NCBI GenBank assembly: GCA_030655395.1
Contig: JAURVQ010000083.1
Location: 3,907 to 67,906 of the forward strand
Direction of reading: 5' to 3'
From: Gammaproteobacteria bacterium
Lineage (GTDB): Bacteria > Pseudomonadota > Gammaproteobacteria > SURF-13
DNA length: 64,000 nt
Part shown: piece by piece, positions 35,642 to 52,156 of the stretch
Layout of the letters: each line of letters starts with the position of its first letter
Numbering within the stretch: position 1 is the stretch's first letter
The notes under the pieces: generated by a model
Databases searched by the model: none
What the model saw: the letters and a program-made list of their open reading frames with translations, nothing else
What the model was told of the DNA's origin: nothing
Program-made: the position numbers and the translations under genes

Positions 35642-35649
35642 CGGTTGCC

Positions 35650-36540
35650 GTGCCGGTGCCTGAGTGGATGGAGCATTACCGCGCGTGCGCCGACGCTGCA
35701 CTCGATCGCTGTCTCCCGCCCGCCACCGCGCTGCCGGTGCAACTGCATCAGGCCATGCGTTATGCCGTGCTCAGCGGCGGCAAACGCATCCGTCCGGTGC
35801 TGGTGTACGCCACCGGCGCGGCGCTCGGCACGCCGCCGGCGCAACTCGACGCTCCGGCGTGCGCGGTGGAGCTGATCCACGCCTATTCGCTGGTGCATGA
35901 CGACCTGCCCGCGATGGACAACGACGACCTGCGCCGCGGCCAGCCCACCTGTCACAAGGCCTGCGGCGAGGCCACGGCGATCCTCGCGGGCGACGCCCTG
36001 CAGGCGCTGGCGTTTCAGTTGCTGACGCAGGATGCCGCGCTCGACGTCACGCCGGTGCTGCGTCTGCGCATGATTGAAATCCTGGCCGAGGCGAGCGGCT
36101 CGCGCGGCATGGCGGGTGGGCAGGCGCTGGACCTCGCCGCCGTCGGGTCGCAGCTTACGCTGGCGGAGCTCGAATACATGCACATCCACAAGACCGGCGC
36201 GCTGATCCGTGCCGCCGTCAGGCTGGGCGCGTTGGGTGCGGTGCAGGAGAGCGATCCGCTGTTCGCACAACTCGACCGTTACGCCAAGTGTATTGGCCTC
36301 GCGTTCCAGATTCACGATGACGTGCTCGACGAGGAAGGCAGCACCGCCACGCTGGGCAAGGTGCAGGGCGCGGATCGCAGGCGCCACAAGCCCACCTATC
36401 CCGCGCTGCTCGGCTTGAGCCAGTCCAGGCAGATGGCGCGCGATTTGTGCGACGAGGCGGTGACGAGCTTGAACAGTCTCGATAGCCGCGCCGAGCCGCT
36501 GCGCAATCTGGCGCGCTACATCGTGGAGCGGTCTAATTAG
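35650..36540 (+). CDS. ispA: Farnesyl-diphosphate synthase (DDLPAMDNDDLRRG, second DD motif)
   Basis: ORF 296 aa. Confidence 0.9.
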   Translation: MPVPEWMEHYRACADAALDRCLPPATALPVQLHQAMRYAVLSGGKRIRPVLVYATGAALGTPPAQLDAPACAVELIHAYSLVHDDLPAMDNDDLRRGQPTCHKACGEATAILAGDALQALAFQLLTQDAALDVTPVLRLRMIEILAEASGSRGMAGGQALDLAAVGSQLTLAELEYMHIHKTGALIRAAVRLGALGAVQESDPLFAQLDRYAKCIGLAFQIHDDVLDEEGSTATLGKVQGADRRRHKPTYPALLGLSQSRQMARDLCDEAVTSLNSLDSRAEPLRNLARYIVERSN

Positions 36541-36623
36541 GTTTGAGTTGATCCTCATTAAACTTGCAACGCACACTATCCGCCGTCATCATTAGCACAT
36601 ACCGCTACACCCACGCTGGCCTT

Positions 36624-38507
36624 ATGTCTTATCCCCTACTTGATCGCATCCACAACCCCGAGCAGTTGCGTACGCTCGACGAAGCCGAGCTTGCGCCGCT
36701 CGCCGCGGAGCTGCGCGCGTTCCTGATCGAATCCGTCGGGCGCACCGGCGGGCATCTCGCCGCCGGGCTCGGCACGGTCGAGCTGTCGATTGCGCTGCAT
36801 TACGTATTCAACACACCCGACGACCGTCTGGTGTGGGACACCGGGCACCAGAGCTACCCGCACAAAATTCTCACCGGCCGGCGCGAGGCCATGCGCAGCT
36901 TGCGGAAAAAAGGTGGCCTCGCCGGTTTCCCCAAGCGCGACGAAAGTCCCTACGACACCTTCGGCGTCGGCCACGCCGGCACCGCGGTGAGCGCCGCGCT
37001 CGGCATGGCGCTCGCTGCCAGTGCGCGCGGCGATGCGCGCAAGACCGTGGCGGTGCTCGGCGACGGCGCACTCACCGCGGGCATGGCGTTCGAGGCGCTG
37101 AATCATGCGGGCGATCTCGACGCCGATCTGCTGGTGATTCTGAACGACAACGACATGTCGATCTCGCCCAACGTGGGCGGCATGTCGAATTACCTCGCGC
37201 GCGTGTTGTCCGGCAAGGTGTATTCCACCATGCGCGAGCGCAGTAAAAAGATACTGGGTGTGATGCCGCCGGTGTGGGAACTCGCGCGCCGCACGGAAGA
37301 GCACATGAAAGGCATGGTGATCCCCGGCGGCACGCTGTTTGAAGAGCTGGGCTTCAACTACATCGGCCCCATCGACGGCCACGACCTGCCCACGCTGCTC
37401 AAGACGCTGCGCAATCTGCGTGCGCTCAAGGGGCCGCAGTTTCTGCACGTGGTCACGCAAAAAGGCAAAGGCTACACGCCTGCGGAGAACGATCCCTGCG
37501 GTTATCACGGCGTGGCGGCGTTTGACCCCGAAAGCGGTGAGCCGCTTGCCAAAGGCGGTGGCACGCCGAGTTACACGCACATCTTCGGCGACTGGCTGTG
37601 CGAGATGGCGGCGCGCGACGAGCGCCTCGTCGCCATCACCCCGGCGATGCGCGAAGGGTCGGGTCTTACGAAATTTTCCGAACGCTATCCCGCACGCTAT
37701 TTCGATGTCGGCATCGCGGAGCAGCACGCCGTTACCCTCGCCGCGGGCCTCGCGTGCGAAGGCTTGAAGCCGGTGGTGGCGATCTACTCCACGTTTTTAC
37801 AGCGCGCGTACGACCAGCTCATCCACGATGTCGCGCTGCAAAATCTGCCGGTGCTGTTCGCCGTTGATCGCGCCGGTATCGTCGGCCCCGACGGCCCCAC
37901 GCATGCGGGCAGTTTCGATTTGAGCTTTATGCGTTGCATCCCGAACATGGTCATCATGGCGCCGACGGACGAAAACGAATGCCGCGACATGCTGACCACC
38001 GGCTTTTTGCACCACGGCCCCGCGGCGGTGCGTTACCCGCGCGGCGGCGGTCCGGGTGTCGCGCTGCAAACCAGCTTCACTGCGCTGCCCCTCGGCAAGG
38101 CGAAGCTGTGCCGCCCCGGCAAGCAAACCGCGCTGCTGGTCTTCGGCGCATTGCTGGAGCCCGCACTGGCGGCGGCACACGAAATCAACGCCACAGTGGT
38201 CAACATGCGCTTCATCAAGCCGCTCGATGAAGCCATGGTGCGACAGCTCGCCGCTCAGCATGAACTGCTGATCACGCTCGAGGACAATGCCGTGCAGGGT
38301 GGCGCGGGCAGTGCGGTGAACGAATGCCTCGCCGCGCAGGGGTTGGCCGCACCCATCATCAATCTGGGACTGCCGGACGAATTTCTCGATCAGGGTACGC
38401 GCGCCGAACTGCTCGCCGCATGCGGGCTCGACGCCGCAGGCATTCTGCGCGCCGTGCGTGGCCACTTTGAAACACAGCGCCAAGTGGTACCGATTAAAGT
38501 AAAATAG
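36624..38507 (+). CDS. dxs: 1-deoxy-D-xylulose-5-phosphate synthase
   Basis: ORF 36564..38507 trimmed to [13 protein letters not shown]. Confidence 0.9.
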
Positions 38508-38511
38508 CGCT

Positions 38512-38895
38512 GTGACCGCTCAATACACCCTCAAGATACTCACCGACTTCGCCTCGGCGCACACCCTGCGCGACTACCCCGGTGACTGCCGCCGCATGCA
38601 CGGCCACAACTGGAAGCTGGAAGTGGAGGTGGTGACTGATCGTCTGGACGATACCGGCATGGGCGTGGATTTCCGCGTCATCAAAAACGCCGCACGCGAC
38701 CTCGCCAAAACCCTCGATCATTATTATCTCAACGACATCCCACCGTTCGACAAGGTGAACCCGACGGCAGAAAACATCGCCGCCTATTTTTTTCGCGGGT
38801 TATCGCAAACCCTGAACCAGCCGCATCTGCGCGTCAGCGCAGTTACACTGTGGGAAACCGACCGCGCCTGTGTGAGATATACCGAGCAGGTATAG
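38512..38895 (+). CDS. queD: 6-carboxy-5,6,7,8-tetrahydropterin synthase (GTG start)
   Basis: ORF 127 aa, CxxxHGH motif. Confidence 0.7.
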   Translation: MTAQYTLKILTDFASAHTLRDYPGDCRRMHGHNWKLEVEVVTDRLDDTGMGVDFRVIKNAARDLAKTLDHYYLNDIPPFDKVNPTAENIAAYFFRGLSQTLNQPHLRVSAVTLWETDRACVRYTEQV

Positions 38896-38899
38896 CGGG

Positions 38900-39556
38900 C
38901 TAATTCTTCCGCTTCAGTAGCATCGTCTGCCCGCTGTGTTGCATTTCGAGACGGCCGAGGAACGACATGCCGAGCAACACCTCGGGCGGCGAGAGGCCCT
39001 CGATCACCATGCCGTCTATCTCGCGTAGCTCAATGTCGCCTACCTTGACCTTGGTGAGCTTGACCACGTAGGCCGGTGCGATGCCGGAGGCGGTGGAGGC
39101 GGTGGTGGGCTGGCCGTTGAGCCGGTAGTTGATGCCGAGCCGTTTGGCCTCGGCGGAGTTCATCGCCACCAGCGTGGCGCCGGTGTCCACCAGAAAATTC
39201 ACGGTGAGGCCGTTGATGGTGCCCACCGTGGCAAACATCCCCTGCGGGTTGCGGATGATCGTCGCACTCGCTTGCTTGGGTGGATCCAGGTGGGTATTTA
39301 CCTGGCTGCCGAGTACATAGGTTTTCTGTTTGCCGTCGATCTCCAGCACCGCCTCGTTGCTGGTGGCGCTCACCAGCTTGACGCCTTCCGGGCTGGTTTG
39401 GCCCACGCTGAGCGCCTGCTGTTTCCCGTCGATGACAACAATGGCCTTGTGCTGGAACAGGCCGAGCACGACTACGGTGTTGACGGCCAATAGCGCGGGG
39501 CTGGCGAGCAGTAGGCCCAGACTGACAGCACAGATACGGATGGCGCGGCAGGACAT
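38900..39556 (-). CDS. Retropepsin-like (clan AA, TIGR02281-type) aspartic protease with N-terminal TM anchor (DTGAT active site)
   Basis: ORF 38900..40297 trimmed to ATG MSCRAIR. Confidence 0.65.
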   Translation of the reverse strand: MSCRAIRICAVSLGLLLASPALLAVNTVVVLGLFQHKAIVVIDGKQQALSVGQTSPEGVKLVSATSNEAVLEIDGKQKTYVLGSQVNTHLDPPKQASATIIRNPQGMFATVGTINGLTVNFLVDTGATLVAMNSAEAKRLGINYRLNGQPTTASTASGIAPAYVVKLTKVKVGDIELREIDGMVIEGLSPPEVLLGMSFLGRLEMQHSGQTMLLKRKN

Positions 39557-39568
39557 GATGCACTTATT

Positions 39569-40273
39569 ATGCTCCGTATGAAGCCGGTGCGCATCTTCCG
39601 CCATGTCGCCAATGAAGGGCCGGGTTATTTCGCCGCGGTGCTGGAGCGGCGCGGTATTGCCTATCAACTGATACACATCGACCAAGGCGAGGCGGTGCCG
39701 CCGGAGGTGGAGGATGTCTCCGGCCTGGTGTTCATGGGCGGGCCGATGAGTGTGAACGACAACCTGCCGTGGATTGCCGAGGAGCTTGCGCTGATTCGCC
39801 GCGCGGCGGAGGCCGGTGTGCCGGTGCTGGGCCATTGTCTCGGCGGCCAGCTCATCAGCAAGGCCCTGGGCGGCGTGGTGAGCGCCAATGCCGTGAAGGA
39901 GGTCGGCTGGCACAGCGTGCAGCGCGTGGACAATCAGCTTGCGCGTGACTGGCTGGATACGTTGCCGCAGGAGTTCGAGGTGTTTCACTGGCATGGCGAG
40001 ACCTTCAGCCTGCCGCGGGATGCAACGCTGCTGCTCACCAGCCCCGCGTGTACGCATCAGGCGTTCGTGTGGCGCAACATGCTTGCGTTGCAGTGTCATG
40101 TGGAGATGACGGCGGCGATGGTGCGCGACTGGGCCGCGCACGAGTGGGCGGCCCCCGGCGCGACGGTGCAGGGCGCACAGAAAATGCAGCAGAACCTGCA
40201 CGCAAAAGTGAGCGCACTCCACTGCGTGGCCGATGTGCTTTATGCGCGCTGGCTGCACCATGTGCAGACGTAA
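39569..40273 (+). CDS. Class I glutamine amidotransferase-like protein
   Basis: ORF 234 aa; GHCLGGQ. Confidence 0.7.
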   Translation: MLRMKPVRIFRHVANEGPGYFAAVLERRGIAYQLIHIDQGEAVPPEVEDVSGLVFMGGPMSVNDNLPWIAEELALIRRAAEAGVPVLGHCLGGQLISKALGGVVSANAVKEVGWHSVQRVDNQLARDWLDTLPQEFEVFHWHGETFSLPRDATLLLTSPACTHQAFVWRNMLALQCHVEMTAAMVRDWAAHEWAAPGATVQGAQKMQQNLHAKVSALHCVADVLYARWLHHVQT

Positions 40274-40457
40274 CCGCAGGACGTGTGAGCTATACATAGC
40301 GCCCTAAATCTACTGCGCGTCTTTGATGCGGGTGCGTGCGGTGCTCGGAATCCTCATGTACTGGTATGTACACTCCGGTTCCTGCGCTCCACCGCCCCCG
40401 CCTGAAAGCCGCTCGCTACGATTTATGTCGCTATGTATAAAAACACCGGGCGCGCTA

Positions 40458-40486
40458 TTGACACGGTAACGAGATGCTCAAATAAT
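40458..40486 (+). promoter_or_regulatory. Candidate sigma70 promoter TTGACA-N17-AATAAT for cspA (~96-nt 5'UTR typical of cold-shock mRNAs)
   Basis: Consensus hexamers read directly. Confidence 0.4.
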
Positions 40487-40588
40487 CAGGGTCGTTATTA
40501 GTGATATGCCTGTTTGCTTCGGCGGGGTTTTCAATCTGAGGCACACTGGCGATGGACAGTGCAGTTATAACTTCAAGGGGTTGCCTGT

Positions 40589-40792
40589 ATGAGTCTTGGT
40601 ACAGTGAAGTGGTTCAACGACAGTAAAGGTTTTGGCTTTATTACCCCCAGCGACGGCACCGAGGACGTATTCGTGCACTACTCCGCCATCGAGTCGGAGG
40701 GGTTCAAGTCATTGGCAGAAGGCCAGACGGTCGAGTTCGAGACGACCAAAGGCCCCAAGGGCCTGCAGGCGGCGCACGTCAAGCCTGCCTGA
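40589..40792 (+). CDS. cspA: Cold-shock protein CspA family
   Basis: ORF 67 aa [18 protein letters not shown]. Confidence 0.9.
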
Positions 40793-40964
40793 GGTGCTGC
40801 ATCCGCTGCGGTGGGCGGATGCGTGAAGTCGGCAGAGACACCCTTCTGCGCTTATCTTGATCTCCTGCCGGTGCGACAGGAGGGTCGTCTTGCGCGGCCT
40901 TTTCTGATACGCTTTTCGCAACTACACAACCCTGCTCCGCACTGAACAGCCGCAAGGAAATCAC

Positions 40965-41108
40965 ATGACGATGCGTAAAATCGAGGCGCTGCTGCTTGCG
41001 GCCATACTGTTAGGTGTGGCAGGCCTGCTCGGCGGCTGCGGGCAGAAGGGCGATCTGTATCTGCCGGATCGTGCACAGACCCAGCCCGACCAGAGCAAGC
41101 CGGGTTAG
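40965..41108 (+). CDS. Small lipoprotein (LptM/YifL-like) preceding lysA, 47 aa, lipobox LLGGC
   Basis: Own translation (below 60-aa ORF cutoff). Confidence 0.5.
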   Translation: MTMRKIEALLLAAILLGVAGLLGGCGQKGDLYLPDRAQTQPDQSKPG

Positions 41109-41146
41109 TAAAACGGCCCGCCCGGTCGTCCCTGCGTCACTACTCC

Positions 41147-42397
41147 ATGGATTCCTTCCAATACCGCAACGGGCGGCTGTTCGCCGAAGCAGCCGATCTC
41201 GCCGCCATTGCCGCGACGCACGGCACGCCGTGTTACGTGTATTCGCGCGCCGCACTCGAAGCGGGTTTCCGCGCGTTTGATGACGCCTTCGCGGCTTATT
41301 CCCATCCGCACCTCGTCTGTTACGCAGTCAAGGCCAACGCCAATCTCGCCGTGCTCAACTGCCTGGCGCGCCTGGGCGCGGGCTTCGATGTGGTCTCTGG
41401 TGGTGAACTCGCACGCGTGCTTGCCGCAGAGGGCGACGCGCGCAAGGTAGTGTTTTCCGGCGTCGGCAAGCGCGCCGACGAGATGCGTCAGGCACTCACG
41501 GCCGGTATCCGCTGCTTTAATGTCGAATCCGCGCCCGAGCTGGAGCGGCTCAACGAGGTGGCGGGTGCGCTCGGCATGCGCGCGCCGGTGGCGCTGCGCG
41601 TCAACCCCGACGTGGACGCGCGCACCCATCCCTATATCGCCACCGGTCTCGCCTGCAGCAAGTTTGGCATCCCCATCGCCATGGCGCCCGCAGTGTATGC
41701 GCGCGCGGCGGCGCTGCCCCATATCGAGATCGTGGGCGTGGACTGCCACATCGGTTCGCAATTGACCGACACCGCACCGTTCGTCGCGGCGGTGGCGCGC
41801 GTGCTCGCGCTGGTGGATGCGCTCGCAGGGCAGGGCATCCACATCCACGAACTGGATCTGGGCGGCGGGCTCGGCATTCCGTATCAGGACGAAACACCGC
41901 CCGCGCCGCAGGAGTATGTCGCGGAGTTGCTGCACGCCGTGGGTGATCGTGCCTGCACCCTGCTCATTGAACCGGGGCGCGCCATCATCGGCAACGCGGG
42001 CGTGTTGCTGACGCGCGTGGAATATCTCAAGCTCAACGGCGCGAAAAATTTCGCCGTGGTCGACGCCGCCATGAATGACCTCATGCGCCCGGCGCTGTAT
42101 GACGCTTGGCACGCGATTGAGCCGGTGCAGCCGCGCAACACGCCCACGCGCGTGTATGACGTGGTCGGCCCGGTGTGCGAGAGCGGCGACTTTCTCGGCA
42201 AGGAACGCGCGCTCGCGCTGGAGCAGGGTGATCTGCTCGTCATCCGCTCTGCAGGCGCCTACGGCATGAGCATGAGCTCCAATTACAATACGCGCCCGCG
42301 CGCCGCGGAGGTGATGGTCGATGGGGCGCAGGTGCATCTGGTGCGTGCGCGCGAAACAGTGGCCGAGTTGTTTGCCGCCGAGCGGCTGCTGCCTTGA
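41147..42397 (+). CDS. lysA: Diaminopimelate decarboxylase
   Basis: ORF 416 aa. Confidence 0.9.
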   Translation: MDSFQYRNGRLFAEAADLAAIAATHGTPCYVYSRAALEAGFRAFDDAFAAYSHPHLVCYAVKANANLAVLNCLARLGAGFDVVSGGELARVLAAEGDARKVVFSGVGKRADEMRQALTAGIRCFNVESAPELERLNEVAGALGMRAPVALRVNPDVDARTHPYIATGLACSKFGIPIAMAPAVYARAAALPHIEIVGVDCHIGSQLTDTAPFVAAVARVLALVDALAGQGIHIHELDLGGGLGIPYQDETPPAPQEYVAELLHAVGDRACTLLIEPGRAIIGNAGVLLTRVEYLKLNGAKNFAVVDAAMNDLMRPALYDAWHAIEPVQPRNTPTRVYDVVGPVCESGDFLGKERALALEQGDLLVIRSAGAYGMSMSSNYNTRPRAAEVMVDGAQVHLVRARETVAELFAAERLLP

Positions 42398-42398
42398 G

Positions 42399-42510
42399 GT
42401 ACCAAGAAGAAAAGACAAGCAATATTGCTTGTCTTTTCTTCTTGGTACCAAATCCTGTTTTACTTACCCCCACCCTGCCCCGCCCCCTAAACAGGGGGCG
42501 GGAACGTAAG
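42399..42510. repeat. Inverted copy of bipartite double-hairpin repeat seen at 15881..15997
   Basis: Direct comparison. Confidence 0.75.
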
Positions 42511-42586
42511 CTGAAATGTCGTCTTACGTGTGAATTACTTAGTACAATACAGTTCCAGCGTGAAGCATTAACCCGGGAATTCAACA

Positions 42587-43132
42587 GTGGAACAATTGCA
42601 CGGAACCACGATTTTATCGGTGCGCCGTAACGGCAGCGTGGTGGTCGGCGGCGACGGCCAGGTGTCGATGGGCAACACCGTGATGAAGAGCAACGCGCGC
42701 AAGGTGCGCCGTCTGTATCACGATCAGGTCATCGCCGGATTCGCCGGCGGCACCGCCGACGCCTTTACCCTGTTCGAGCGCTTCGAAGGCAAACTGGAAA
42801 AGCATCAGGGCAATCTCACGCGTGCCGCGGTCGAGCTCGCCAAGGACTGGCGGACGGATCGCATGCTGCGCCGTCTGGAGGCGCTGCTCGTGGTCGCCGA
42901 CAAGAGCGCCTCGCTCATCATCTCCGGCAACGGCGACGTCATCGAGCCGGAAAACGGCCTCATGGCCATCGGCTCGGGCGGCCCGTATGCGCAGGCGGCG
43001 GCGCGCGCCTTGCTGGAAAATACCGAACTCGACGCGCGCAGCATCGTCGAGCGCGGCCTCGCGATTGCCGCCGACATTTGCGTATTCACCAATCGCACCA
43101 TCACGCTGGAAGAACTTCCGGCAGCCGTCTGA
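42587..43132 (+). CDS. hslV: ATP-dependent protease subunit HslV (N-terminal Thr after Met...TTILSV)
   Basis: ORF 181 aa; high-GC codon usage of upstream genome. Confidence 0.9.
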
Positions 43133-43140
43133 GCCGCATC

Positions 43141-44484
43141 ATGTCCCTCACACCGCAGCAAATCGTCCAGGAACTGGACAAGCACATCATCGGGCAGGCC
43201 GCCGCCAAGCGCGCCGTGGCGATTGCCTTGCGCAACCGCTGGCGCCGCGGTCAGGTGGATGAATCGCTGCGCAACGAAATCACGCCGAAAAATATCCTGA
43301 TGATCGGGCCGACCGGTGTCGGCAAGACCGAAATCGCGCGCCGTCTCGCCAAGCTCGCGCATGCGCCGTTCCTCAAGATCGAGGCCACCAAGTTTACCGA
43401 GGTGGGTTACGTCGGGCGCGACGTCGAGTCCATCATCCGCGATCTGGTGGACACGGCCATCAAGATGACGCGCGAGGAGGAAATCAAAAAGGTGCGACCG
43501 CGCGCGGAGGAAAGCGCCGAGGAGCGCATCCTCGACATTCTGCTGCGGCCGGCGCGTGAAAGCACGCGTGCGGATGCGACGGTGGTGCAGGACGAACCCG
43601 CCACGCGCCAGGTGTTCCGCAAGAAACTGCGCGAGGGCGTGCTCGATGAGCGTGAGATCGAGGTCGATCTGAGCGTCGCGCCGGTGGGGGTCGAGATCAT
43701 GGCGCCGCCGGGCATGGAAGAAATGAGCAGCCAGTTGCAGAGCATGTTCCAGAATCTCGCGGGTGGCCGCACGCGCACCCGCAAGCTGCGCGTGAAGGAG
43801 GCGTTCAAGCTGCTCACCGATGAAGCCGCCGCCAAGCTCATCGACGAAGAGGCGCTGAAGGCGCGTGCACTGCAAAGCGTCGAGCAAAACGGCATCGTGT
43901 TTATCGACGAGATCGACAAGGTGGCCAAGCGCGGTAATTCCGGCGGCGTCGATGTCTCCCGCGAAGGCGTGCAGCGCGACCTGCTGCCGCTGATCGAAGG
44001 CTGCACCGTCAACACCAAGCTGGGCATGGTCAAGACCGACCACATCCTGTTTATCGCTTCCGGTGCGTTCCACCTGAGCAAGCCAAGCGACCTGGTGCCG
44101 GAGCTGCAAGGCCGTCTGCCGATTCGCGTTGAGCTGAAAGCGCTGACGCCGGGCGACTTCGAACGCATTCTCAGCGAGCCCCATGCGTCGCTGACCGAGC
44201 AATACCGCGAACTGCTTAAAACCGAAGGCTTGGGCATTGAGTTCCTGCCGGACGGAATCAAGCGTTTGGCCGAGATCGCCTGGCAGGTCAACGAGAAGAC
44301 CGAGAACATCGGTGCCCGTCGTCTGCACACCCTGCTTGAGCGCCTGCTGGAGGAAGTGTCCTTCAGTGCCGGCGACATGGCGGGCGCGCAGAATGGCGAG
44401 GCAATCAAGATCGACGCCGACTACGTCAACAGCCACTTGGGCGAATTGGCGCAGAACGAAGATCTGTCTCGTTATATCCTGTAA
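43141..44484 (+). CDS. hslU: ATP-dependent protease ATPase subunit HslU; 5' part has upstream-genome codon usage, 3' part Pseudomonas-like
   Basis: ORF 43078..44484 trimmed to [12 protein letters not shown]. Confidence 0.9.
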
Positions 44485-44513
44485 GGCTTACGCAGGAACC
44501 GCTCTGCTTTAAT

Positions 44514-44600
44514 GTGGGAGCGGGCTTGCTCGCGAATGCGGTGGGTCAGTTTATGCAACGGTGACTGACCCACCGCATTCGCGAGCAAGCCCGCTCCCAC
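44514..44600. repeat. Inverted pair of P. fluorescens-group REP elements (GTGGGAGCGGGCTTGCTCGCGAA...)
   Basis: Recognised REP consensus, palindromic doublet. Confidence 0.85.
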
Positions 44601-44646
44601 AGTTTAAAGCCGGTTCCTTCAGGATCATCTCTGAGCGGTTCCCCAA

Positions 44647-45024
44647 ATGACCAAACTGCCTACCGCCATCAACCTGCACAAAGCCTCCAAGACCCTGGGC
44701 CTTACCTACGGTCCTGACGAGGTGTATCAACTGCCCGCCGAATTCCTTCGCGTGCACTCCCCCTCCGCCGAGGTCCAGGGCCACGGCAAACCGATCCTGC
44801 AATTCGGCAAGCTCAATGTCGGTTTGACCAAGATCGAACCCGCCGGCCAATATGCACTGAAATTGACCTTCGACGATGGCCATGACAGCGGATTGTTCAC
44901 CTGGGACTACCTCTATCAACTTGCCGTGCGTCAGGACGCGCTGTGGGCTGACTATCTTGCCGAGCTGAAAGCCGCCGGAAAAACCCGCGACCCGAGCCAG
45001 TCGGTCGTGCGGCTGATGCTCTAG
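44647..45024 (+). CDS. DUF971 protein conserved upstream of phaC1 in Pseudomonas
   Basis: ORF 125 aa; synteny. Confidence 0.8.
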   Translation: MTKLPTAINLHKASKTLGLTYGPDEVYQLPAEFLRVHSPSAEVQGHGKPILQFGKLNVGLTKIEPAGQYALKLTFDDGHDSGLFTWDYLYQLAVRQDALWADYLAELKAAGKTRDPSQSVVRLML

Positions 45025-45273
45025 CTCAGGCCTCTTGCTCATTAGTGGGCATTTTCTAATTCCATCTGCTTGAATGCCCCTCTGTCGTGGCCAACGATTG
45101 GCCCGCTTGCGAAAAAAATTAAACTCGGGTAACCAATGGAACTGGCAAGTTCCCTGCATTTGACGATGCGGTATTAACGGTCACCCGAGCAGTAGTACCA
45201 GGCTGTGCTGTGTGGCAAGTAGTGGTACACAGCGGTACCCGGTACTCGTCTGTCGGACAATGGAGCGTCGTAG

Positions 45274-46953
45274 ATGAGTAACAAGAACAACGATGACTTG
45301 AAACGCCAAGCCTCGGAAAACACCCTGGGGCTGAACCCGATCATCGCGTTACGGAAAAAGGATTTACTGGCATCCGCTCGGATGGTGCTGACCCAGGCCA
45401 TCAAACAACCGTTGCACAGCGTCAAGCACGTCGCCCATTTTGGCGTCGAATTGAAGAACGTGGTGTTCGGCAAATCACAGCTGACACCCGAGGCCGACGA
45501 CCGCCGCTTCAACGACCCGGCGTGGACCCAGAACCCGCTCTACAAACGTTACCTGCAAACCTACCTGGCGTGGCGCAAGGAGCTGCACGACTGGATCGGT
45601 GACAGCAACCTGTCGGAGCACGACATCAGCCGCGGCCACTTCGTCATCAACCTGATGACCGAAGCCATGGCGCCCACCAATAGCGCGGCCAACCCGGCGG
45701 CAGTCAAACGCTTCTTCGAAACCGGCGGCAAGAGCCTGCTGGATGGCCTGTCCCACCTGGCCAAGGACATGGTGCACAACGGCGGCATGCCAAGCCAGGT
45801 CAACATGGGCGCCTTTGAAGTGGGCAAGAGCCTGGGCACCACCGAAGGCGCCGTGGTGTTTCGCAACGATGTGCTGGAGCTGATCCAGTACCGGCCGATC
45901 ACCGAGCAGGTGCACGAACGCCCACTGCTGGTGGTGCCGCCGCAGATCAACAAGTTCTATGTATTCGACCTGAGCCCGGACAAGAGCCTGGCGCGGTTCT
46001 GCCTGCGCAATAACCAGCAGACGTTTATCATCAGCTGGCGCAACCCGACCAAGGCCCAGCGCGAGTGGGGCCTGTCGACCTACATCGAGGCGCTGAAAGA
46101 AGCGGTGGATGTGGTGAGCGCGATCACCGGCAGCAAAGACATCAACATGCTTGGCGCCTGTTCCGGCGGCATCACCTGCACCGCCCTGCTGGGCCACTAC
46201 GCGGCGCTGGGCGAGAAGAAGGTCAACGCCCTGACCCTGCTGGTGAGCGTGCTGGACACCACCCTGGACACCCAGGTGGCGCTGTTCGTCGACGAGCAGA
46301 CCCTGGAAGCAGCCAAGCGCCACTCCTACCAGGCCGGTGTGCTCGAAGGCCGCGACATGGCCAAAGTATTTGCCTGGATGCGCCCCAATGACCTGATCTG
46401 GAATTACTGGGTCAACAACTACCTGCTGGGCAACGAGCCGCCGGTATTCGACATCCTGTTCTGGAACAACGACACCACCCGCTTGCCGGCCGCGTTCCAC
46501 GGCGACCTGATTGAGCTGTTCAAGAACAACCCGTTGGTTCGCGCCAATGCCCTCGAAGTGTGCGGCACGCCGATCGACCTGAAGCAGGTCACCGCCGATA
46601 TCTATTCGTTGGCCGGCACCAACGACCACATCACGCCGTGGCAGTCCTGCTACAAGTCGGCGCAGCTGTTTGGCGGCAAGGTTGAGTTTGTGTTGTCCAG
46701 CAGCGGGCATATCCAGAGCATCCTGAACCCGCCGGGCAACCCCAAGTCGCGTTACCAGACCAGCGACACGATGCCGGGCAAGGCCCTCGACTGGCAGGAG
46801 AACGCCACCAAGCACACCGATTCGTGGTGGCTGCACTGGCAAGCGTGGCAGGCGGAGCGGTCGGGCAAGTTGAAGAAGGCGCCGACGGCGTTGGGTAATA
46901 AAGCGTACGCAGCGGCTGAAGCGGCGCCGGGCACTTACGTACATGAACGATAA
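45274..46953 (+). CDS. phaC1: Class II poly(3-hydroxyalkanoate) synthase 1
   Basis: ORF 559 aa, lipase box GACSGG. Confidence 0.95.
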   Translation: MSNKNNDDLKRQASENTLGLNPIIALRKKDLLASARMVLTQAIKQPLHSVKHVAHFGVELKNVVFGKSQLTPEADDRRFNDPAWTQNPLYKRYLQTYLAWRKELHDWIGDSNLSEHDISRGHFVINLMTEAMAPTNSAANPAAVKRFFETGGKSLLDGLSHLAKDMVHNGGMPSQVNMGAFEVGKSLGTTEGAVVFRNDVLELIQYRPITEQVHERPLLVVPPQINKFYVFDLSPDKSLARFCLRNNQQTFIISWRNPTKAQREWGLSTYIEALKEAVDVVSAITGSKDINMLGACSGGITCTALLGHYAALGEKKVNALTLLVSVLDTTLDTQVALFVDEQTLEAAKRHSYQAGVLEGRDMAKVFAWMRPNDLIWNYWVNNYLLGNEPPVFDILFWNNDTTRLPAAFHGDLIELFKNNPLVRANALEVCGTPIDLKQVTADIYSLAGTNDHITPWQSCYKSAQLFGGKVEFVLSSSGHIQSILNPPGNPKSRYQTSDTMPGKALDWQENATKHTDSWWLHWQAWQAERSGKLKKAPTALGNKAYAAAEAAPGTYVHER

Positions 46954-46989
46954 AGCACACACAATTTTGTGACTGGAACGGGATCAACT

Positions 46990-47093
46990 GTGGGAGCGGG
47001 CTTGCTCGCGAAGGCGGTGTGTCAGTTGATACATCTGGAGATTGATTCACCGCCTTCGCGAGCAAGTCGAATCGTCGCACCGCCGCTCCCACA
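46990..47093. repeat. REP inverted pair (one arm interrupted)
   Basis: REP consensus. Confidence 0.8.
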
Positions 47094-47142
47094 CTGACCG
47101 AGTTCCGACAGGGAATAGCGCGCCATTTTGCAGGGTAAGCCC

Positions 47143-47988
47143 ATGCCGCAACCGTTTATCTTCCGTACCATCGACCTGGATGGCCAAGCCATCCGCACGG
47201 CGGTACGCCCGGGCAAGCCTCACTTGACGCCGCTGCTGATTTTCAACGGCATCGGCGCCAACCTTGAGCTCGTGTTTCCGTTCGTCCAGGCCCTGGACCC
47301 GGACCTGGAAGTGATTGCCTTTGATGTGCCAGGCGTCGGCGGCTCGTCGACTCCCAGTCGGCCTTATCGCTTTCCCGGCCTGGCCAAACTCACCGCGCGC
47401 ATGCTCGATTACCTGGACTATGGCCAGGTCAACGCGGTGGGCGTTTCCTGGGGCGGCGCGCTGGCGCAGCAGTTCGCCTATGACTACCCGGAGCGCTGCA
47501 AGAAGCTGATTCTCGCCGCCACCGCTGCCGGCGCCTTTATGGTGCCGGGCAAACCGAAAGTCCTGTGGTTGATGGCCAGTCCCCGGCGTTATATCCAACC
47601 GTCCCATGTGGTGCGCATTGCCCCGATGATCTACGGCGGCTCCTTCCGTCGGGATTCCAAGCTGGCCGCCGAACACGCCAGCAAAGTGCGTTCGGCGGGC
47701 AAGCTGGGCTACTACTGGCAACTGTTCGCCGGGCTTGGCTGGACCAGCATCCACTGGCTGCACAAGATCAAGCAACCAACCCTGGTGCTGGCCGGCGATG
47801 ACGACCCGCTGATCCCGCTGATCAACATGCGCATGCTGGCCTGGCGCATACCCAACGCTCAACTGCACATCATCGACGACGGTCATCTGTTTCTGATTAC
47901 CCGGGCCGAGGCCGTGGCGCCGATCATCATGAAATTTCTCCAGGAGGAACGCCTGAGGGCGGTGATTCACCCGCAACCCGCCCTATGA
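47143..47988 (+). CDS. phaZ: Intracellular PHA depolymerase (alpha/beta hydrolase, GVSWGG)
   Basis: ORF 47128(TTG)..47988; ATG MPQPF at 47143. Confidence 0.9.
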   Translation: MPQPFIFRTIDLDGQAIRTAVRPGKPHLTPLLIFNGIGANLELVFPFVQALDPDLEVIAFDVPGVGGSSTPSRPYRFPGLAKLTARMLDYLDYGQVNAVGVSWGGALAQQFAYDYPERCKKLILAATAAGAFMVPGKPKVLWLMASPRRYIQPSHVVRIAPMIYGGSFRRDSKLAAEHASKVRSAGKLGYYWQLFAGLGWTSIHWLHKIKQPTLVLAGDDDPLIPLINMRMLAWRIPNAQLHIIDDGHLFLITRAEAVAPIIMKFLQEERLRAVIHPQPAL

Positions 47989-47997
47989 GCAAGCCCT

Positions 47998-48113
47998 CCG
48001 TAGCAGCTGTCGAGCGCCAGCGAGGCTGCGTCAGCCGCGACTCGGTCCTGCGCCAGGCTCATCATCGGCGGCGCGCTCAACGCAGCCTCGCTGGCGCTCG
48101 ACAGCTGCTACGG
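47998..48113. repeat. Perfect 34-bp inverted repeat (ccgtagcagctgtcgagcgccagcgaggctgcgt) with 48-bp spacer, distinct from the GTGGGAGCGGG REP family
   Basis: Exact reverse complement read directly. Confidence 0.85.
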
Positions 48114-48235
48114 AATTACGAATCACGGAGGTTACAGGGAAGAAATTTTGGTCGCGCATAGGGTCACTTGGCCAGAACCGACTATGGTTCTGAATTGGCG
48201 TGCTTGTTGATGGCTTGACGAAGGAGTGTTGGCGC

Positions 48236-49918
48236 ATGCGAGAAAGACCCGTATCGAACCCGGTGCCCACACCCGCCGCGTTCATCAATGCACAAAGCGC
48301 GATCACCGGCCTGCGCGGCCGGGATTTGCTCTCGACCCTGCGCAGCGTCGCCGCACACGGCCTGCGCAACCCGGTACATACCGCCCGCCACGCCCTGAAA
48401 TTGGGTGGGCAATTGGGCCGTGTGCTGCTCGGGGAAACGGTGCACGAGCCGAACCCGGCCGACAGCCGTTTCGCCGACCCGACCTGGCAGCTCAACCCGT
48501 TTTATCGGCGCAGCCTGCAAGCCTATTTGAGCTGGCAAAAACAAACCCGGCACTGGATCGACGACAGCAACCTGAGCGCCGACGACCGGGCCCGGGCGCA
48601 ATTTGCCTTTTCCCTGCTCAACGATGCGGTTTCGCCCTCCAATACGTTGCTCAACCCGCTGGCCATCAAGGAGTTGCTCAACTCCGGCGGCAATAGCGTG
48701 GTGCGTGGTGTCAGCAATCTGTTCGATGATCTGCTGCACAACAACGGCTTGCCGCGGCAGGTCACCAGGCAGGCCTTTGAAGTCGGCAAGACGGTGGCTA
48801 CCACGCCCGGCTCGGTGGTGTTTCGCAACGAACTGCTGGAGCTGATCCAGTACAAGCCCATGAGCGAAAAACAGTACGCCAAGCCGCTGCTGGTAGTGCC
48901 GCCGCAAATCAACAAGTACTACATCTTCGACCTGAGCCCGAACAACAGCTTCGTCCAGTTCGCCCTGAAAAACGGCCTGCAAGTATTCATGGTCAGCTGG
49001 CGCAACCCGGATGTACGGCATCGCGAATGGGGCCTTTCCACCTACGTAGCAGCTTTGGAAGAAGCGCTGAACGTGTGCCGCGCAATCACCGGCGCCCGCG
49101 AGGTCAACTTGATGGGCGCCTGCGCCGGTGGCCTGACCATCGCTGCGCTGCAAGGCCACCTGCAGGCCAAGCGCCAGCTGCGTCGCATCTCCAGTGCCAG
49201 TTATCTGGTGTGCCTGCTGGACAGCCAGATCGACAGCCCGGCCACCCTGTTCGCCGACGAACAAACCCTGGAAGCCGCCAAGCGCCGCTCCTATCAACAA
49301 GGTGTGCTCGATGGACGCGACATGGCCAAGGTGTTCGCCTGGATGCGTCCCAACGACCTGATCTGGAATTACTGGATCAACAACTACCTGCTGGGCAAGG
49401 AACCGCCGGCCTTCGACATCCTGTACTGGAACAACGACAACACCCGCCTGCCCGCCGCACTGCATGGCGACTTGCTGGACTTCTTCAAGCACAACCCGCT
49501 GAGTCATCCCGGTGGCCTGGAAGTTTGCGGCACGCCCATCGACTTGCAGAAGGTCACGGTGGACAGCTTCAGCGTGGGCGGGATCAACGACCACATCACG
49601 CCGTGGGACGCGGTGTACCGCTCCACCCAACTGCTGGGCGGCGACAAGCGCTTCATTCTGTCCAACAGCGGGCATATCCAGAGCATCCTCAACCCGCCAG
49701 GCAATCCCAAGGCGAACTACGTCGAGAACCTCAAGCTGAGCAGCGACCCGCGTGCCTGGTACTACGACGCAGCTCATGTCGAGGGCAGTTGGTGGCCCAA
49801 TTGGCTGGCGTGGATCCAGCAGCGCTCCGGTGTGCAGCGCGAAACCCTGACCGCCCTGGGCAACCAGAATTACCCACCGATGGAAGCGGCGCCGGGCACC
49901 TATGTGCGGGTCCGCTGA
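48236..49918 (+). CDS. phaC2: Class II PHA synthase 2
   Basis: ORF 48200..49918 trimmed to ATG MRERP; GACAGG lipase box. Confidence 0.9.
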   Translation: MRERPVSNPVPTPAAFINAQSAITGLRGRDLLSTLRSVAAHGLRNPVHTARHALKLGGQLGRVLLGETVHEPNPADSRFADPTWQLNPFYRRSLQAYLSWQKQTRHWIDDSNLSADDRARAQFAFSLLNDAVSPSNTLLNPLAIKELLNSGGNSVVRGVSNLFDDLLHNNGLPRQVTRQAFEVGKTVATTPGSVVFRNELLELIQYKPMSEKQYAKPLLVVPPQINKYYIFDLSPNNSFVQFALKNGLQVFMVSWRNPDVRHREWGLSTYVAALEEALNVCRAITGAREVNLMGACAGGLTIAALQGHLQAKRQLRRISSASYLVCLLDSQIDSPATLFADEQTLEAAKRRSYQQGVLDGRDMAKVFAWMRPNDLIWNYWINNYLLGKEPPAFDILYWNNDNTRLPAALHGDLLDFFKHNPLSHPGGLEVCGTPIDLQKVTVDSFSVGGINDHITPWDAVYRSTQLLGGDKRFILSNSGHIQSILNPPGNPKANYVENLKLSSDPRAWYYDAAHVEGSWWPNWLAWIQQRSGVQRETLTALGNQNYPPMEAAPGTYVRVR

Positions 49919-49945
49919 GCCCAACGAAGACCTTAAGAAGACTGG

Positions 49946-50566
49946 ATGAAGACCCGCGACCGTATCCTTGAATGTGCCTTGCAGTTGTTCAACCACAAGG
50001 GCGAGCCGAACGTGTCGACCATGGAGGTGGCGAATGAAATGGGGATCAGTCCCGGCAATCTCTATTACCACTTCCATGGCAAGGAGCCGCTGGTGCTCGG
50101 GCTGTTCGAGCGCTTCCAGGCCGAATTGGCGCCATTGCTCGACCCGCCTGACGACGCCCAACTGGCGGCCGAGGATTACTGGCTATTCCTGCACCTGATC
50201 GTGGAGCGTATGGCCCACTACCGGTTTCTGTTCCAGGACTTGTCGAACTTGGCGGGGCGCCTGCCGAAACTGGCCAAGGGCATTCGCAACCTGCTGACGG
50301 CGCTCAAGCGCACGCTGGCCTCGTTGCTGGCCAGGCTCAAGACGGATGGGCAATTGGTCAGTGACACCCAGGCGCTGGGACAGTTGGTGGAACAGATCAC
50401 CATGACCCTGCTGTTTTCCCTGGACTACCAACGGATTCTCGACCGTGAGGGTGAGGTGCGGGTGGTGGTGTACCAGATCATGATGCTGGTGGCGCCGCAT
50501 CTTTTGATGCCGGCGAGGATGGCGACGGAGCGGTTGGCGCTCAGGTACCTGGACGACGCGGACTAA
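49946..50566 (+). CDS. phaD: TetR-family regulator of pha genes
   Basis: ORF 206 aa, synteny. Confidence 0.85.
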   Translation: MKTRDRILECALQLFNHKGEPNVSTMEVANEMGISPGNLYYHFHGKEPLVLGLFERFQAELAPLLDPPDDAQLAAEDYWLFLHLIVERMAHYRFLFQDLSNLAGRLPKLAKGIRNLLTALKRTLASLLARLKTDGQLVSDTQALGQLVEQITMTLLFSLDYQRILDREGEVRVVVYQIMMLVAPHLLMPARMATERLALRYLDDAD

Positions 50567-50568
50567 AA

Positions 50569-50656
50569 TGGGGGATCGGGCTTGCTCCCGAAAGCGAAGT
50601 GTCAGTCAACGCATGTGTAACTGATCCACCGCTTTCGCGAGCAAGCCCGCTCCCAC
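50569..50656. repeat. REP inverted pair
   Basis: REP consensus. Confidence 0.8.
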
Positions 50657-50685
50657 ATTGGATTTGTGTTGTTCTGTAGATTCCA

Positions 50686-50722
50686 TAAAAAACGCCCGAC
50701 CTTCGCAGGCCGGGCGTTTTTA
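50686..50722. terminator. Bidirectional rho-independent terminator (aaaaaacgcccgaccttcgcaggccgggcgttttt) shared by phaD and phaF
   Basis: GC stem with A/T tracts on both sides. Confidence 0.75.
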
Positions 50723-50737
50723 TGTGTCCTGTAAAAA

Positions 50738-51721
50738 TCAGGACTGACTGGTAGGCGTCGGGGTTGCCGGCGTTGCAGTCGGGGTAGCAGCAGCCTGGGT
50801 CGGTGGGGTCACCGAGTTGGTCGCTGGCGCCGGGGTTGCAGGCTTGGCCGCTACCGCAGGCTTTGGCGCTGCTGGCTTTTTGGCTACGGCCGGCTTCTTC
50901 GCCGCAGCCGGTTTGGCAGCCGGCTTGGACGCTGCAGGTTTAGCGGCGGGTTTGGCAGCGGCCGGCTTGGCTGCAGGTTTCGCAGCGGCTGGTTTGGCAG
51001 CAGGTTTAGCGGCAGCGGTTTTAGCCGCGGGCTTGGCTGCGGCTTTTGCTGCCGGCTTGGCGGCTGGTTTTGCCGCAGGTTTTGCAGCTGCTTTAGCGGC
51101 CACTGGTTTAGCGGCAGGCTTGGCGGCCGGTTTAGCCGCTGCGGTTTTAGTCGCAGGCTTGGCAGCCGGTTTTGCAGCAGCTTTGGCCGGCGCTTTAGCG
51201 GCTGGCTTGGCGGCAGCCTTGACCAGCGGTTTAGCGGCGGTTTTTGCAGCAGGCTTGGCCGCTGCAGTTTTCGCGGCAGGCTTGGCAGCTGGTTTAGCCG
51301 CTGCGGTTTTGGCCGCAACTGGCGCAGCTTTAAGGCCAGTGAGTTTTTCGATTTGCTTGGTCAGAGTATCGACCTTGCTGTGCAGCGCTTTCACTTCAGT
51401 ACGGCTAGGTACGCCGAGTCGCGAAATGGCACTGTTCAGGCGCTTGTCAAAAGCCCCTTCCAGTTCGCCCCACTTATCGCTGATACGTGATTTGGCAGAA
51501 CCGGCGGAAGCCTTTGCCGCATCGACTTGTTTACCCACTGTGCTCTTGGTCAACTTCTCGGCCTTCTCGCCGTCTTTAACCAAAGTCTCGAAGTATTTAC
51601 CGCCGTCACTGCTCACCTTCGAGTACACGCCTAAACCGGCCAGCCAGATCTTGCGGGAGTATTTTTCAACTTCCCCGATCCACGAGCTGCCTTCTTTATC
51701 AGTAGTCTTTTTACCAGCCAT
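50738..51721 (-). CDS. phaF: Phasin PhaF with C-terminal histone-H1-like AAKPA repeat tail
   Basis: ORF 327 aa. Confidence 0.9.
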   Translation of the reverse strand: MAGKKTTDKEGSSWIGEVEKYSRKIWLAGLGVYSKVSSDGGKYFETLVKDGEKAEKLTKSTVGKQVDAAKASAGSAKSRISDKWGELEGAFDKRLNSAISRLGVPSRTEVKALHSKVDTLTKQIEKLTGLKAAPVAAKTAAAKPAAKPAAKTAAAKPAAKTAAKPLVKAAAKPAAKAPAKAAAKPAAKPATKTAAAKPAAKPAAKPVAAKAAAKPAAKPAAKPAAKAAAKPAAKTAAAKPAAKPAAAKPAAKPAAAKPAAKPAASKPAAKPAAAKKPAVAKKPAAPKPAVAAKPATPAPATNSVTPPTQAAATPTATPATPTPTSQS

Positions 51722-51733
51722 CCCGTTGTCTCC

Positions 51734-52156
51734 TTAGTGTTTACGCGCGACACGTTCGAGCAATGCCGTCAGCTCATCGAGCTTAGCAGAGAGTGTCTCC
51801 ACGTCATGTTTAGACGGAATGCCGATCCGATTCAAGGCACTTCCAACACGACTATCAAAAGCGCGTTCAACTTTATCCAGTTGCACTTCGACTCGACCTT
51901 TGACGCCGAAGACTTCGCTCTTGACTTGATCAATCTGACTGTTGGCAGCATCAAGTTGTTCAATCACAACTTTTTTGCCTTTACTTTCAACATGTTGACC
52001 AGTCTTAACGAGCTCTTTGAAGTACTCGGCGCCCTCGCTTCCAACCTTGGCATAAGCCCCCAAACCGGCCAACCAGATCTTGCGGGCATAGGATTTAACG
52101 TCAGTCAGGGCGTTAGTTCCGGTAGCAATTTTTTTCTTCAAAATAACTTTGGCCAT
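51734..52156 (-). CDS. phaI: Phasin PhaI
   Basis: ORF 51734..52168 trimmed to MAKVILKKK. Confidence 0.85.
   Translation of the reverse strand: MAKVILKKKIATGTNALTDVKSYARKIWLAGLGAYAKVGSEGAEYFKELVKTGQHVESKGKKVVIEQLDAANSQIDQVKSEVFGVKGRVEVQLDKVERAFDSRVGSALNRIGIPSKHDVETLSAKLDELTALLERVARKH

Follow-up and report, generated by a model that had tools for sequence, protein, structure and literature searches.

Two bacterial genomes very probably joined by an assembler inside hslU of a metagenome-derived contig

The window, by which we mean the whole 64,000-nt stretch of DNA analysed, changes its nearest relative abruptly inside the gene hslU, and judging by its sequence we consider it, with a probability of about 0.9, to be an in-silico assembly chimera, in which two organisms of the same sample were fused by the assembler in one contig of a metagenome-assembled genome (MAG). 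Positions 1–43888 very probably derive from a rare uncultured gammaproteobacterium and positions 43921–64000 from a Pseudomonas yamanorum-like strain. As an assembler very probably made the window out of two bacteria, the join matters for data quality and not for biology, and very probably should be handled as a question of database quality control. This reading builds on what has been demonstrated: where the breakpoint lies, which organisms the two parents are, that each side occurs un-joined in nature, that both parents occur in one read set and that the record is from a MAG.

To locate the breakpoint, the window was compared at informative sites with a contig of the left lineage (L092) and with a Pseudomonas locus (L002). 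Left-type and Pseudomonas-type sites number 296 and 19 before position 43889, and 0 and 39 after it (Fisher p = 6.6e-38), a change of nearest relative at a single point that is far above chance. It falls within 43889–43920 (+ strand, ACGGCATCGTGTTTATCGACGAGATCGACAAG), 32 nt which encode the Walker B motif of HslU and are identical to Pseudomonas L002, and the final left-diagnostic bases are 43887–43888. Nucleotide identity over 42750–43888 is 94% to L092 and 69% to L002, and over 43921–44083 it is 99.4% to L002 (162/163) vs. 76% to L092 (124/163). Against the Pseudomonas loci (L002, L104 and others) identity is ~71% over 42587–43888, rises to 98.3–99.0% over 43889–44484 (L002, L104, L107, L108 and L109), is 98.5–99.4% on the right side near the join and 99.2% over 43889–46950. 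No exact match of the left side to the Pseudomonas loci is longer than this 32-nt interval, the runner-up being 26 nt in hslV; L092, the closest proxy of the left parent, mismatches it at one base, 43896, leaving exact runs of 24 nt and 7 nt. The first-pass annotation had described an identity switch inside hslU, from ~71% to ~99% to Pseudomonas as we now find, and a chimera of two unrelated genomes seamed in this conserved gene, and in both it was right. Its placement of the switch in the last ~300–450 bp of hslU was not; the alignment of hslU to Pseudomonas and to left-lineage relatives puts the crossover at 43889–43920, 565–596 nt before the end of the stop codon and ~150–300 nt further upstream. 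Sliding identity against the relatives of each parent can pin joins of this kind to a few tens of bases.

Three other features change where identity does: the repeat families, the tetranucleotide signature and the codon preference. Tetranucleotide correlation is 0.95–0.97 within either side and 0.85–0.88 across them, flipping at 42–46 kb. The per-gene codon log-likelihood ratio is positive for all left genes and the 5′ part of hslU, and negative for the 3′ part and all right-side genes except phaD (+0.008); the sign flip bears out a reported change to Pseudomonas-like codons, but the statement that threonine is encoded only by ACC was too strong, as ACC makes up 76% of the threonine codons right of the join and 50% of those left of it. 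A very high GC3 had likewise been named as a mark of the left side, but GC (~0.62 left vs. ~0.61 right) and GC3 (0.72–0.88 vs. 0.70–0.87) are alike on both sides and were rejected as markers of the join. The intergenic repeats sort as expected from the earlier description. Hairpins of the CCCGCCCCCT..AGGGGGCGGG family (15889 and 42479) occur only on the left, one in an element at 15882–15926 and the other in the lysA–hslV gap (42398–42509), which holds a perfect 26+26 palindrome (42398–42449) followed by the hairpin element (42465–42509); none lies right of the junction, and GAGAAAAG-type palindromes are similarly confined to the left side. Pseudomonas REP elements, on the other hand, begin just after hslU, the first core match being 36 nt past the stop codon, and all 7 of the 7 core matches lie at or beyond 44520 (0.8 expected by chance). 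The first REP pair is inverted (44511–44604, a ...GGGAGCGGGCTTGCTCGCGAA... element with cores at 44520 and 44578), its 38-nt arms are 100% complementary and it is 100% identical to L002; other copies lie at 46989, 50569, 50634, 58707 and 58784.

The right side is a Pseudomonas chromosome segment (43921–64000). NCBIfam matches identify a DUF971 gene (44647–45024), phaC1 (45274–46953), phaZ (47128–47988), phaC2 (48200–49918), phaD (49946–50566) and, on the minus strand, phaF (50738–51721), phaI (51734–52168) and a PHA-granule gene (52262–52537), the whole DUF971 and pha cluster spanning 44647–52537; it is followed by ubiE, an SCP2 gene, ubiB, hisI, hisE, tatABC and rsmE, with two HBM-type chemoreceptor genes and an ABC ATPase also present. 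The gene order DUF971-phaC1-phaZ-phaC2-phaD-phaF-phaI-ubiE-ubiB-hisIE-tatABC is as the first-pass annotation had read it. The segment is collinear with, and 95–99% identical to, L096–L099, L102–L107 and L002 as far as 64000, and the exact DUF971 and PhaC1 proteins are present in many Pseudomonas genomes, RefSeq naming the PhaC1 Pseudomonas yamanorum. The right part is therefore from a genome of the P. fluorescens group, as had been proposed. From 43921 onwards the window is the Pseudomonas hslVU-DUF971-phaC1ZC2DFI-ubiE-ubiB-hisIE-tatABC locus at 95–99% identity, REP elements included. Natively, however, that locus has a Pseudomonas hslV and hslU 5′ part with priA-argS and a SPOR-domain gene upstream, and the Pseudomonas genomes and metagenome contigs which share the DUF971 and PhaC1 proteins carry priA-argS-SPOR-hslV, not lysA, before hslU; in place of these the window has the lysA, hslV and hslU 5′ part of another organism.

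That other organism accounts for positions 1–43888, which contain an MSHA/type IV pilus cluster, trmB, thiG, a porin gene, an EAL-GGDEF protein gene, phoB, typA, VIT1, xseB, ispA, dxs, queD, cspA, lysA, hslV and the 5′ part of hslU. The core genes that had been listed for this side (trmB, thiG, the porin, typA, ispA, dxs, lysA and hslV) were all found, but their attribution to a betaproteobacterium is not supported. The relatives of its HslU and TypA are uncultured MAGs named 'Gammaproteobacteria bacterium', followed by members of Competibacteraceae, Steroidobacteraceae, Woeseiaceae, Chromatiales and similar groups; neither Burkholderiales nor any betaproteobacterial name occurs among the best 80 GTDB-representative loci for the N-terminal part of HslU or the best 120 TypA matches, and the MAG itself is labelled Gammaproteobacteria. 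L092, an independent metagenome contig from an uncultured gammaproteobacterium, matches the left side at 94% identity; past the breakpoint it extends another 163 nt as a non-Pseudomonas hslU of its own, where its identity to the window is 76%. A related MAG (L100/L101, GCA_027624315.1 and ENA contig ERZ23495043) is syntenic with window positions 25378–43630 at 82–94% identity, mostly 87–94%, a comparison that ends 258 nt before the breakpoint; it encodes its own 443-aa HslU and its contig runs 34 kb past hslU. The left-lineage hslV (42587–43132, + strand, NCBIfam HslV 309 bits) differs from that of L100 in 2 of 181 residues and is 70–80% identical to Pseudomonas at the nucleotide level; the CspA, QueD and HslV of the window are none of them identical to their L100 counterparts, and exact protein look-up returned no record of the HslV. 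Megablast to the Pseudomonas loci gave no match starting upstream of hslU (43141). Searching for the genuine HslU C-terminus of the left lineage with the 79-aa continuation from L092 returned only fragments of ≤89% identity and no same-species match, and scans of JGI metagenomes for left-lineage hslU with an exact 33-mer and a wobble-degenerate I-domain pattern, both upstream of the junction, gave no match.

The open-reading frame across the join (43141–44484, + strand) is in frame, full length and encodes 447 aa, against 443 aa for the natural HslU of the left-lineage relative and 445 aa for that of Pseudomonas. It scores 685 bits against TIGR00390 (cut-off 362) over profile positions 1–441 of 441, and by this match is a bona fide HslU (ClpY AAA+ ATPase) in form, but one that combines two alleles. 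Its 5′ part (43141–43888, + strand) encodes the N-terminal and I domains, residues 1–249, with 99% amino acid identity to P0001 on L092; its 3′ part (43921–44484, + strand) is the Pseudomonas allele by nucleotide identity to the Pseudomonas loci. The exact hybrid protein has no record among the gene positions searched, and a search for HslU homologues returned only left-type (P0001) or ordinary ones, with no second hybrid within the collections searched.

The source record is a metagenome (mixed-sample) assembly deposited as a MAG. Exact LysA (MDO9372240), TypA (MDO9372229) and PhaC1 (MDO9372244) are in GenBank, titled 'MAG ... Gammaproteobacteria bacterium' and encoded on a contig of 75,202 bp, and the spacing of these accessions agrees with the gene order in the window; by the same order the hybrid HslU is probably MDO9372242.1. 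The Logan assembly of SRR13727533 contains a contig of 100% identity to each side, L011 for the left (window 40412–42427) and, separately, L095 for the right (50646–51756), which carries a strain-specific PhaF allele found only in JGI 3300009092, ERR15945929 and SRR13727533. This run is probably the MAG's own source. Each side is therefore found un-joined and collinear with its own lineage, the left in L092 and L100/L101 and the right in the Pseudomonas loci.

An assembly mis-join would account for these observations as follows. The two hslU genes, ~70% identical overall, would share an exact run of 24–32 nt over the Walker B codons (43889–43920), its shortness being a consequence of the wide divergence of the parents. 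In a de Bruijn graph with k no greater than the shared run, both genomes would traverse one common node, and at low coverage the assembler may enter along the path of one genome and exit along that of the other. Because the join falls at homologous, in-frame positions, the product would be a full-length 447-aa hybrid HslU that annotation pipelines would accept. We infer both the graph traversal and the k value. It is documented that metagenome assemblers produce chimeric contigs from genomes sharing identical stretches, and contigs mixing Salmonella and E. coli were obtained from a mock community (PMC8172020). The window is like these inter-genome chimeras in that the parents come from one sample, the switch is abrupt and falls in a conserved gene, at a stretch that both parents probably share exactly, either side keeps the gene order of its own lineage and the contig was deposited in a MAG. 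It is unlike them in that its parents are very distant lineages (~70% hslU identity) and not close relatives, and in that its join lies 43.9 kb into the contig, away from its ends, and is known here from sequence and not from reads. A metagenome contig, L108, breaks and mis-joins ≤30 nt from the same site.

The first-pass annotation had left the choice between an assembly or binning chimera and a splice or recombination. An assembly chimera is by far the best supported of these; a binning error is unsupported, because the join sits within one contig, and so is a deliberate splice. An artefact of another kind, a chimeric fragment or read from library preparation or amplification, or an overlap-based merging or scaffolding of contigs at hslU, is very improbable but leads to the same practical conclusion, that the join is not biological. 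Should the left parent share the T of L092 at 43896, the exact run to the left of this base would shrink to 7 nt. A k-mer join could not arise from so short a run, and an artefact such as a chimeric read or the merging of contigs would then be indicated. Contigs from several assemblies stop near the site (L092, L108), and L108 has a 132-nt foreign end fused to the same Pseudomonas hslU region which fits the first 141-mer of a k141 contig, the pattern expected from a single chimeric read. Against this, the join lies exactly in the longest shared exact run, as a k-mer graph predicts, and sequence does not tell the sub-types of artefact apart. Practically negligible is an engineered splice, or a genuine Pseudomonas genome with a foreign island: the sharpness of the junction is all that recommends it, no vector, scar, restriction-site or marker sequence was found there, the left 43.9 kb are the housekeeping region of another lineage, 90–94% identical to its MAG and not an island, Pseudomonas genomes have the priA-argS-SPOR-hslV arrangement described above, and the record is a metagenome bin.

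A natural inter-species recombinant, in which 20 kb or more of Pseudomonas chromosome passed to the uncultured gammaproteobacterium, or DNA passed the other way, by a crossover in the 32-nt stretch of hslU, is very improbable. The join is in frame and at homologous positions, the hybrid scores as a complete HslU, both organisms occur in the same sample and hence had the opportunity, and as 32 nt of identity is about the minimum for RecA-mediated recombination, the junction taken alone is compatible with a natural event. Flanks only ~70% identical are strongly unfavourable for homologous recombination, however, and the Pseudomonas part is collinear at 95–99% for its whole 20 kb, with REPs and the core genes ubiE, ubiB, hisIE and tatABC, with no second crossover, second boundary or return to the left lineage in the window up to 64000. 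Within the window no integration feature such as an att site, an integrase or a tRNA was found at the join (the only tRNA is at 25282), the hybrid protein and the junction are absent from every other record searched, with no independent genome or sample sharing the junction within the collections searched, a related MAG (L100) retains its own hslU, and the sequence is a short-read-type MAG and not an isolate. Natural mosaics such as the pbp genes of Streptococcus and Neisseria arise by homologous recombination between close relatives, typically of <25% divergence, consist of a short tract with a crossover at either end, and turn up repeatedly in isolates. The window is like them in its in-frame hybrid open-reading frame and its crossover in a conserved block, but beyond its one crossover the foreign core chromosome runs on for at least 20 kb, and its hybrid is found in one MAG only. 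Were the junction real, which is just as improbable, a soil or rhizosphere gammaproteobacterium would carry at least 20 kb of Pseudomonas core genes through a single Walker B crossover and make a functional inter-order hybrid HslU.

With an assembly chimera as the preferred reading, 20 kb or more of Pseudomonas chromosome lie on a 75-kb contig of a public MAG named 'Gammaproteobacteria bacterium', together with a complete-looking hybrid HslU. Such records inflate apparent gene content: the uncultured lineage would here be credited with genes that may be absent from it, namely those of a class II PHA pathway and the ubi, his and tat genes. They can also mimic horizontal transfer and place artificial mosaic proteins in databases. 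On this reading, some 30 nt of the conserved AAA+ Walker B block suffice to bridge two genomes that otherwise diverge by ~30%. Chimeric contigs and mis-joins are addressed by tools such as GUNC, metaMIC and DeepMAsED.

Some further observations concern the left side. The exact TypA and a 465-aa open-reading frame at 38900–40297 had no match in an exact look-up of gene positions; the latter is over-extended and was rejected, the real genes there being one for a ~218-aa Asp-protease and an opposite-strand GATase gene. The first 6 kb (1–6 kb) have lower GC and an atypical tetranucleotide profile, which may point to another chimeric join; no independent contig covering them was found, and they are contiguous with the minor-pilin/pilus gene cluster. 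Upstream of cspA lies a match to the Rfam family sX9 (Xanthomonas).

Within the ORF map of the region, lysA (41147-42397) is followed by hslV (42587-43132), hslU (43141-44484), a DUF971 gene (44647-45024) and phaC1 (45274-46953), and the window changes parent inside hslU, as the first-pass annotation had proposed. When aligned base by base to Pseudomonas loci in 60-nt blocks, identity was 45-83% for 42580-43899, and nearly all blocks from 43900 on were 93-100% identical; taken over longer stretches, identity was ~71% over 42587-43888, 98.3-99.0% over 43889-44484 and 99.2% over 43889-46950. A 1,333-bp ENA metagenome contig (L092), our proxy for the left lineage, aligns with window 42750-44083 and so spans the breakpoint, sharing 94.2% identity with the window over 42750-43888 and 76.1% over 43921-44083, a stretch in which the Pseudomonas locus L002 is 99.4% identical. 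Positions where L092 and L002 disagree were taken as informative: before 43889 the window reads as L092 at 296 of these and as L002 at 19, after it as L092 at 0 and as L002 at 39 (Fisher p = 6.6e-38). Left-diagnostic bases end at 43887-43888, and the right side is first marked unambiguously at 43921. This confines the crossover to 43889-43920, ACGGCATCGTGTTTATCGACGAGATCGACAAG, in the Walker B block codons of HslU, and refines the breakpoint of the abrupt switch. No other exact match that the left 43.9 kb shares with the Pseudomonas loci is as long as this 32-nt run, the runner-up having 26 nt (in hslV) and the remainder at most 18 nt; the exact match at the crossover is 27 nt with L104-type Pseudomonas and 24 nt with L092 as left proxy.

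GC is flat along the window, at ~0.61-0.63 left and right of 43.9 kb, and long-ORF GC3 is 0.72-0.88 on the left vs. 0.70-0.87 on the right, so the very high left-side GC3 once offered as a distinguishing mark does not separate the two. Tetranucleotide profiles do, correlating at 0.95-0.97 inside each side and 0.85-0.88 across sides, and sliding windows turn from left-like into right-like between 42 and 46 kb. The difference in synonymous codon preference is modest (ACG 31% vs. 14%, CTC 32% vs. 15%, GCG 45% vs. 26%, left vs. right), and the per-gene codon log-likelihood ratio is above 0 in all left genes and the 5' part of hslU and below 0 in its 3' part and all right-side genes but phaD (+0.008). 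The Pseudomonas REP core is matched seven times (0.8 expected by chance), in no case before 44520, which agrees with the REP elements first noticed right of the join; left-type hairpins and palindromes are confined to the window below 42.6 kb. Purine-rich palindromes (GAGAAAAGAGGCAAGAG...) occur on the left side only, immediately 3' of genes, at 20374-20494, 23568-23669 and 42398-42449, and are probably terminators or the REP-like repeats of the left lineage.

The right-hand parent is close to Pseudomonas yamanorum. Exact DUF971, PhaC1 and TatC proteins have only Pseudomonas among their source names, the exact PhaC1 being WP_421525246.1 with P. yamanorum named, and the identical DUF971 protein is found by exact look-up in many NCBI genomes, with priA-argS-SPOR-hslV-hslU upstream and phaC1-phaZ-phaC2-phaD-phaF-phaI-ubiE-SCP2-ubiB downstream. 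Collinearity with Pseudomonas chromosomes (95-99% identity) extends to the window's last base.

On the left, HslU residues 1-249 retrieved a single near-identical protein (99%), encoded on L092, with other matches at or below 80%, and TypA gave a match at 99% identity, encoded on an ENA contig of 51 kb that is the same as GCA_027624315.1. This locus is syntenic with window 25378-43630 at 82-94% identity (mostly 87-94%), a comparison that ends 258 nt before the breakpoint, and its contig carries its own 443-aa HslU followed by 34 kb of further sequence. The best GTDB-representative matches of the HslU N-terminal part are 67-75% identical, and the best TypA matches beyond its own species 76-85%; these relatives are uncultured Gammaproteobacteria, Competibacteraceae/Contendobacter, Steroidobacteraceae, Woeseiaceae, Chromatiales and Acidiferrobacterales, and betaproteobacterial names are absent from both sets of best matches. 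Judged by these similarity searches, the left side would be gammaproteobacterial, and the initial description as betaproteobacterium-like is not supported. Adjacency of hslVU and DUF971 is widespread among its relatives, so a DUF971 gene of its own probably follows hslU in the left organism too. A match to Rfam sX9, a Xanthomonas sRNA (40356-40430, +; 44.3 bits vs. a gathering score of 44), sits immediately upstream of a cspA-like gene (40589-40792) and is probably a conserved cold-shock-gene leader, consistent with a gammaproteobacterial left side.

The chimera exists in the deposited metagenome-assembled genome: exact-sequence look-up places the window's LysA (MDO9372240.1), TypA (MDO9372229.1) and PhaC1 (MDO9372244.1) on one 75,202-bp contig, each labelled "[Gammaproteobacteria bacterium]" and the first two also prefixed "MAG:", and the accession spacing agrees with the ten genes between typA and lysA and the three (hslV, hslU, DUF971) between lysA and phaC1. 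Both parents also occur in one read set, SRR13727533, whose independent assembly holds them on separate short contigs. One Logan contig of this run carries the exact LysA and is 100% identical to window 40412-42427, another is 100% identical to 50646-51756, neither crosses the junction, and the run's assembly has no called gene for the hybrid HslU. Only three data sets record the window's strain-specific, repeat-rich PhaF allele of 327 aa: JGI 3300009092, Logan ERR15945929 and Logan SRR13727533. The LysA-bearing contig terminates within the palindrome at 42398-42449.

We consider an assembly artefact by far the likeliest cause of the chimera (probability roughly 0.9). The original reading of a chimera seamed in hslU was right, and of the causes it named assembly is the best supported and binning falls, the join being within one contig. 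In a de Bruijn graph at k = 21-31 the two genomes would meet in one node at the shared run of 24-32 nt, and a wrong traversal there, in a low-coverage region, could survive the multi-k rounds, since multi-k metagenome assemblers pass low-k contigs on to later ones. Chimeric contigs between genomes with identical shared stretches are documented (PMC8172020). A chimeric read, or contigs merged by overlap, is a very unlikely route to the same artefact, one that would gain likelihood if the left parent carries T at 43896, as L092 does.

That the two organisms, which do co-occur, recombined naturally is very unlikely: RecA-type recombination needs roughly 32 nt of identity as a minimum, which the site offers, but the flanks are ~30% divergent, past the sole crossover seen the sequence stays collinear with Pseudomonas core chromosome, REPs included, for at least 20 kb, the related MAG keeps its own hslU, and the hybrid is absent from all other records searched, with no called gene encoding the exact hybrid HslU by exact look-up. 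We found no support for the deliberate splice also suggested earlier, or for a true Pseudomonas genome that carries a foreign island. The hslU join is not a biological feature, and it is of use for quality control of databases. Lying at homologous in-frame codons, it yields a hybrid HslU that is full-length by the NCBIfam equivalog model (685 bits), which explains why annotation raised no flag.

Another metagenome contig, k141_163939 of ENA ERZ27268032 (L108), carries the Pseudomonas hslU 3' part, DUF971 and exact PhaC1 as in the window; its first ~132 nt (L108:1-160 region) are an unrelated gene, antisense of an MDR/quinone-oxidoreductase-like GxGxxG motif, and give way to Pseudomonas hslU under 30 nt away from the junction in the window (equivalent to window ~43862-43890). 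L108 represents either another mis-join or a contig break at the Walker B block, consistent with assembly graphs tangling at this conserved stretch.

Window 1-5552 is the lowest-GC part (0.53-0.56 at 500-2500), and its tetranucleotide profile is typical of neither side (r = 0.82 and 0.81). It has periodic repeats of 171-174 nt at 234-1293 and a 1321-aa ORF (1587-5552, -) without Pfam match that adjoins minor pilin genes, and may encode a pilus-associated adhesin or have been acquired. Beyond it lies a large MSHA-type/type IV pilus cluster (5760-22840, -) with a Wzy_C O-antigen-ligase-like protein with TPR (8080-10113, -), several prepilin-type genes, GspF/PilC-like, TPR, MshL secretin and PilM-like proteins, and a GspE/MshE-like ATPase with a c-di-GMP-binding MshE N-domain. 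A 600-aa EAL-GGDEF protein (28430-30232) is replaced in the GCA_027624315.1 locus (L100:12687-13347) by short ORFs, a 75-aa EAL fragment and a 107-aa ORF, and the alignment is interrupted at 28628-30235, reflecting either a strain-level indel or decay of a c-di-GMP signalling gene. A 132-nt intergenic element of four consecutive hairpins forms an inverted pair (32956-33087 and 35191-35322, 89% identical) flanking an ORF (33087-34106) and a VIT1 gene; the same relative has one copy (96% identical), and the element is perhaps one of the left organism's repeats, small and mobile or REP-like.
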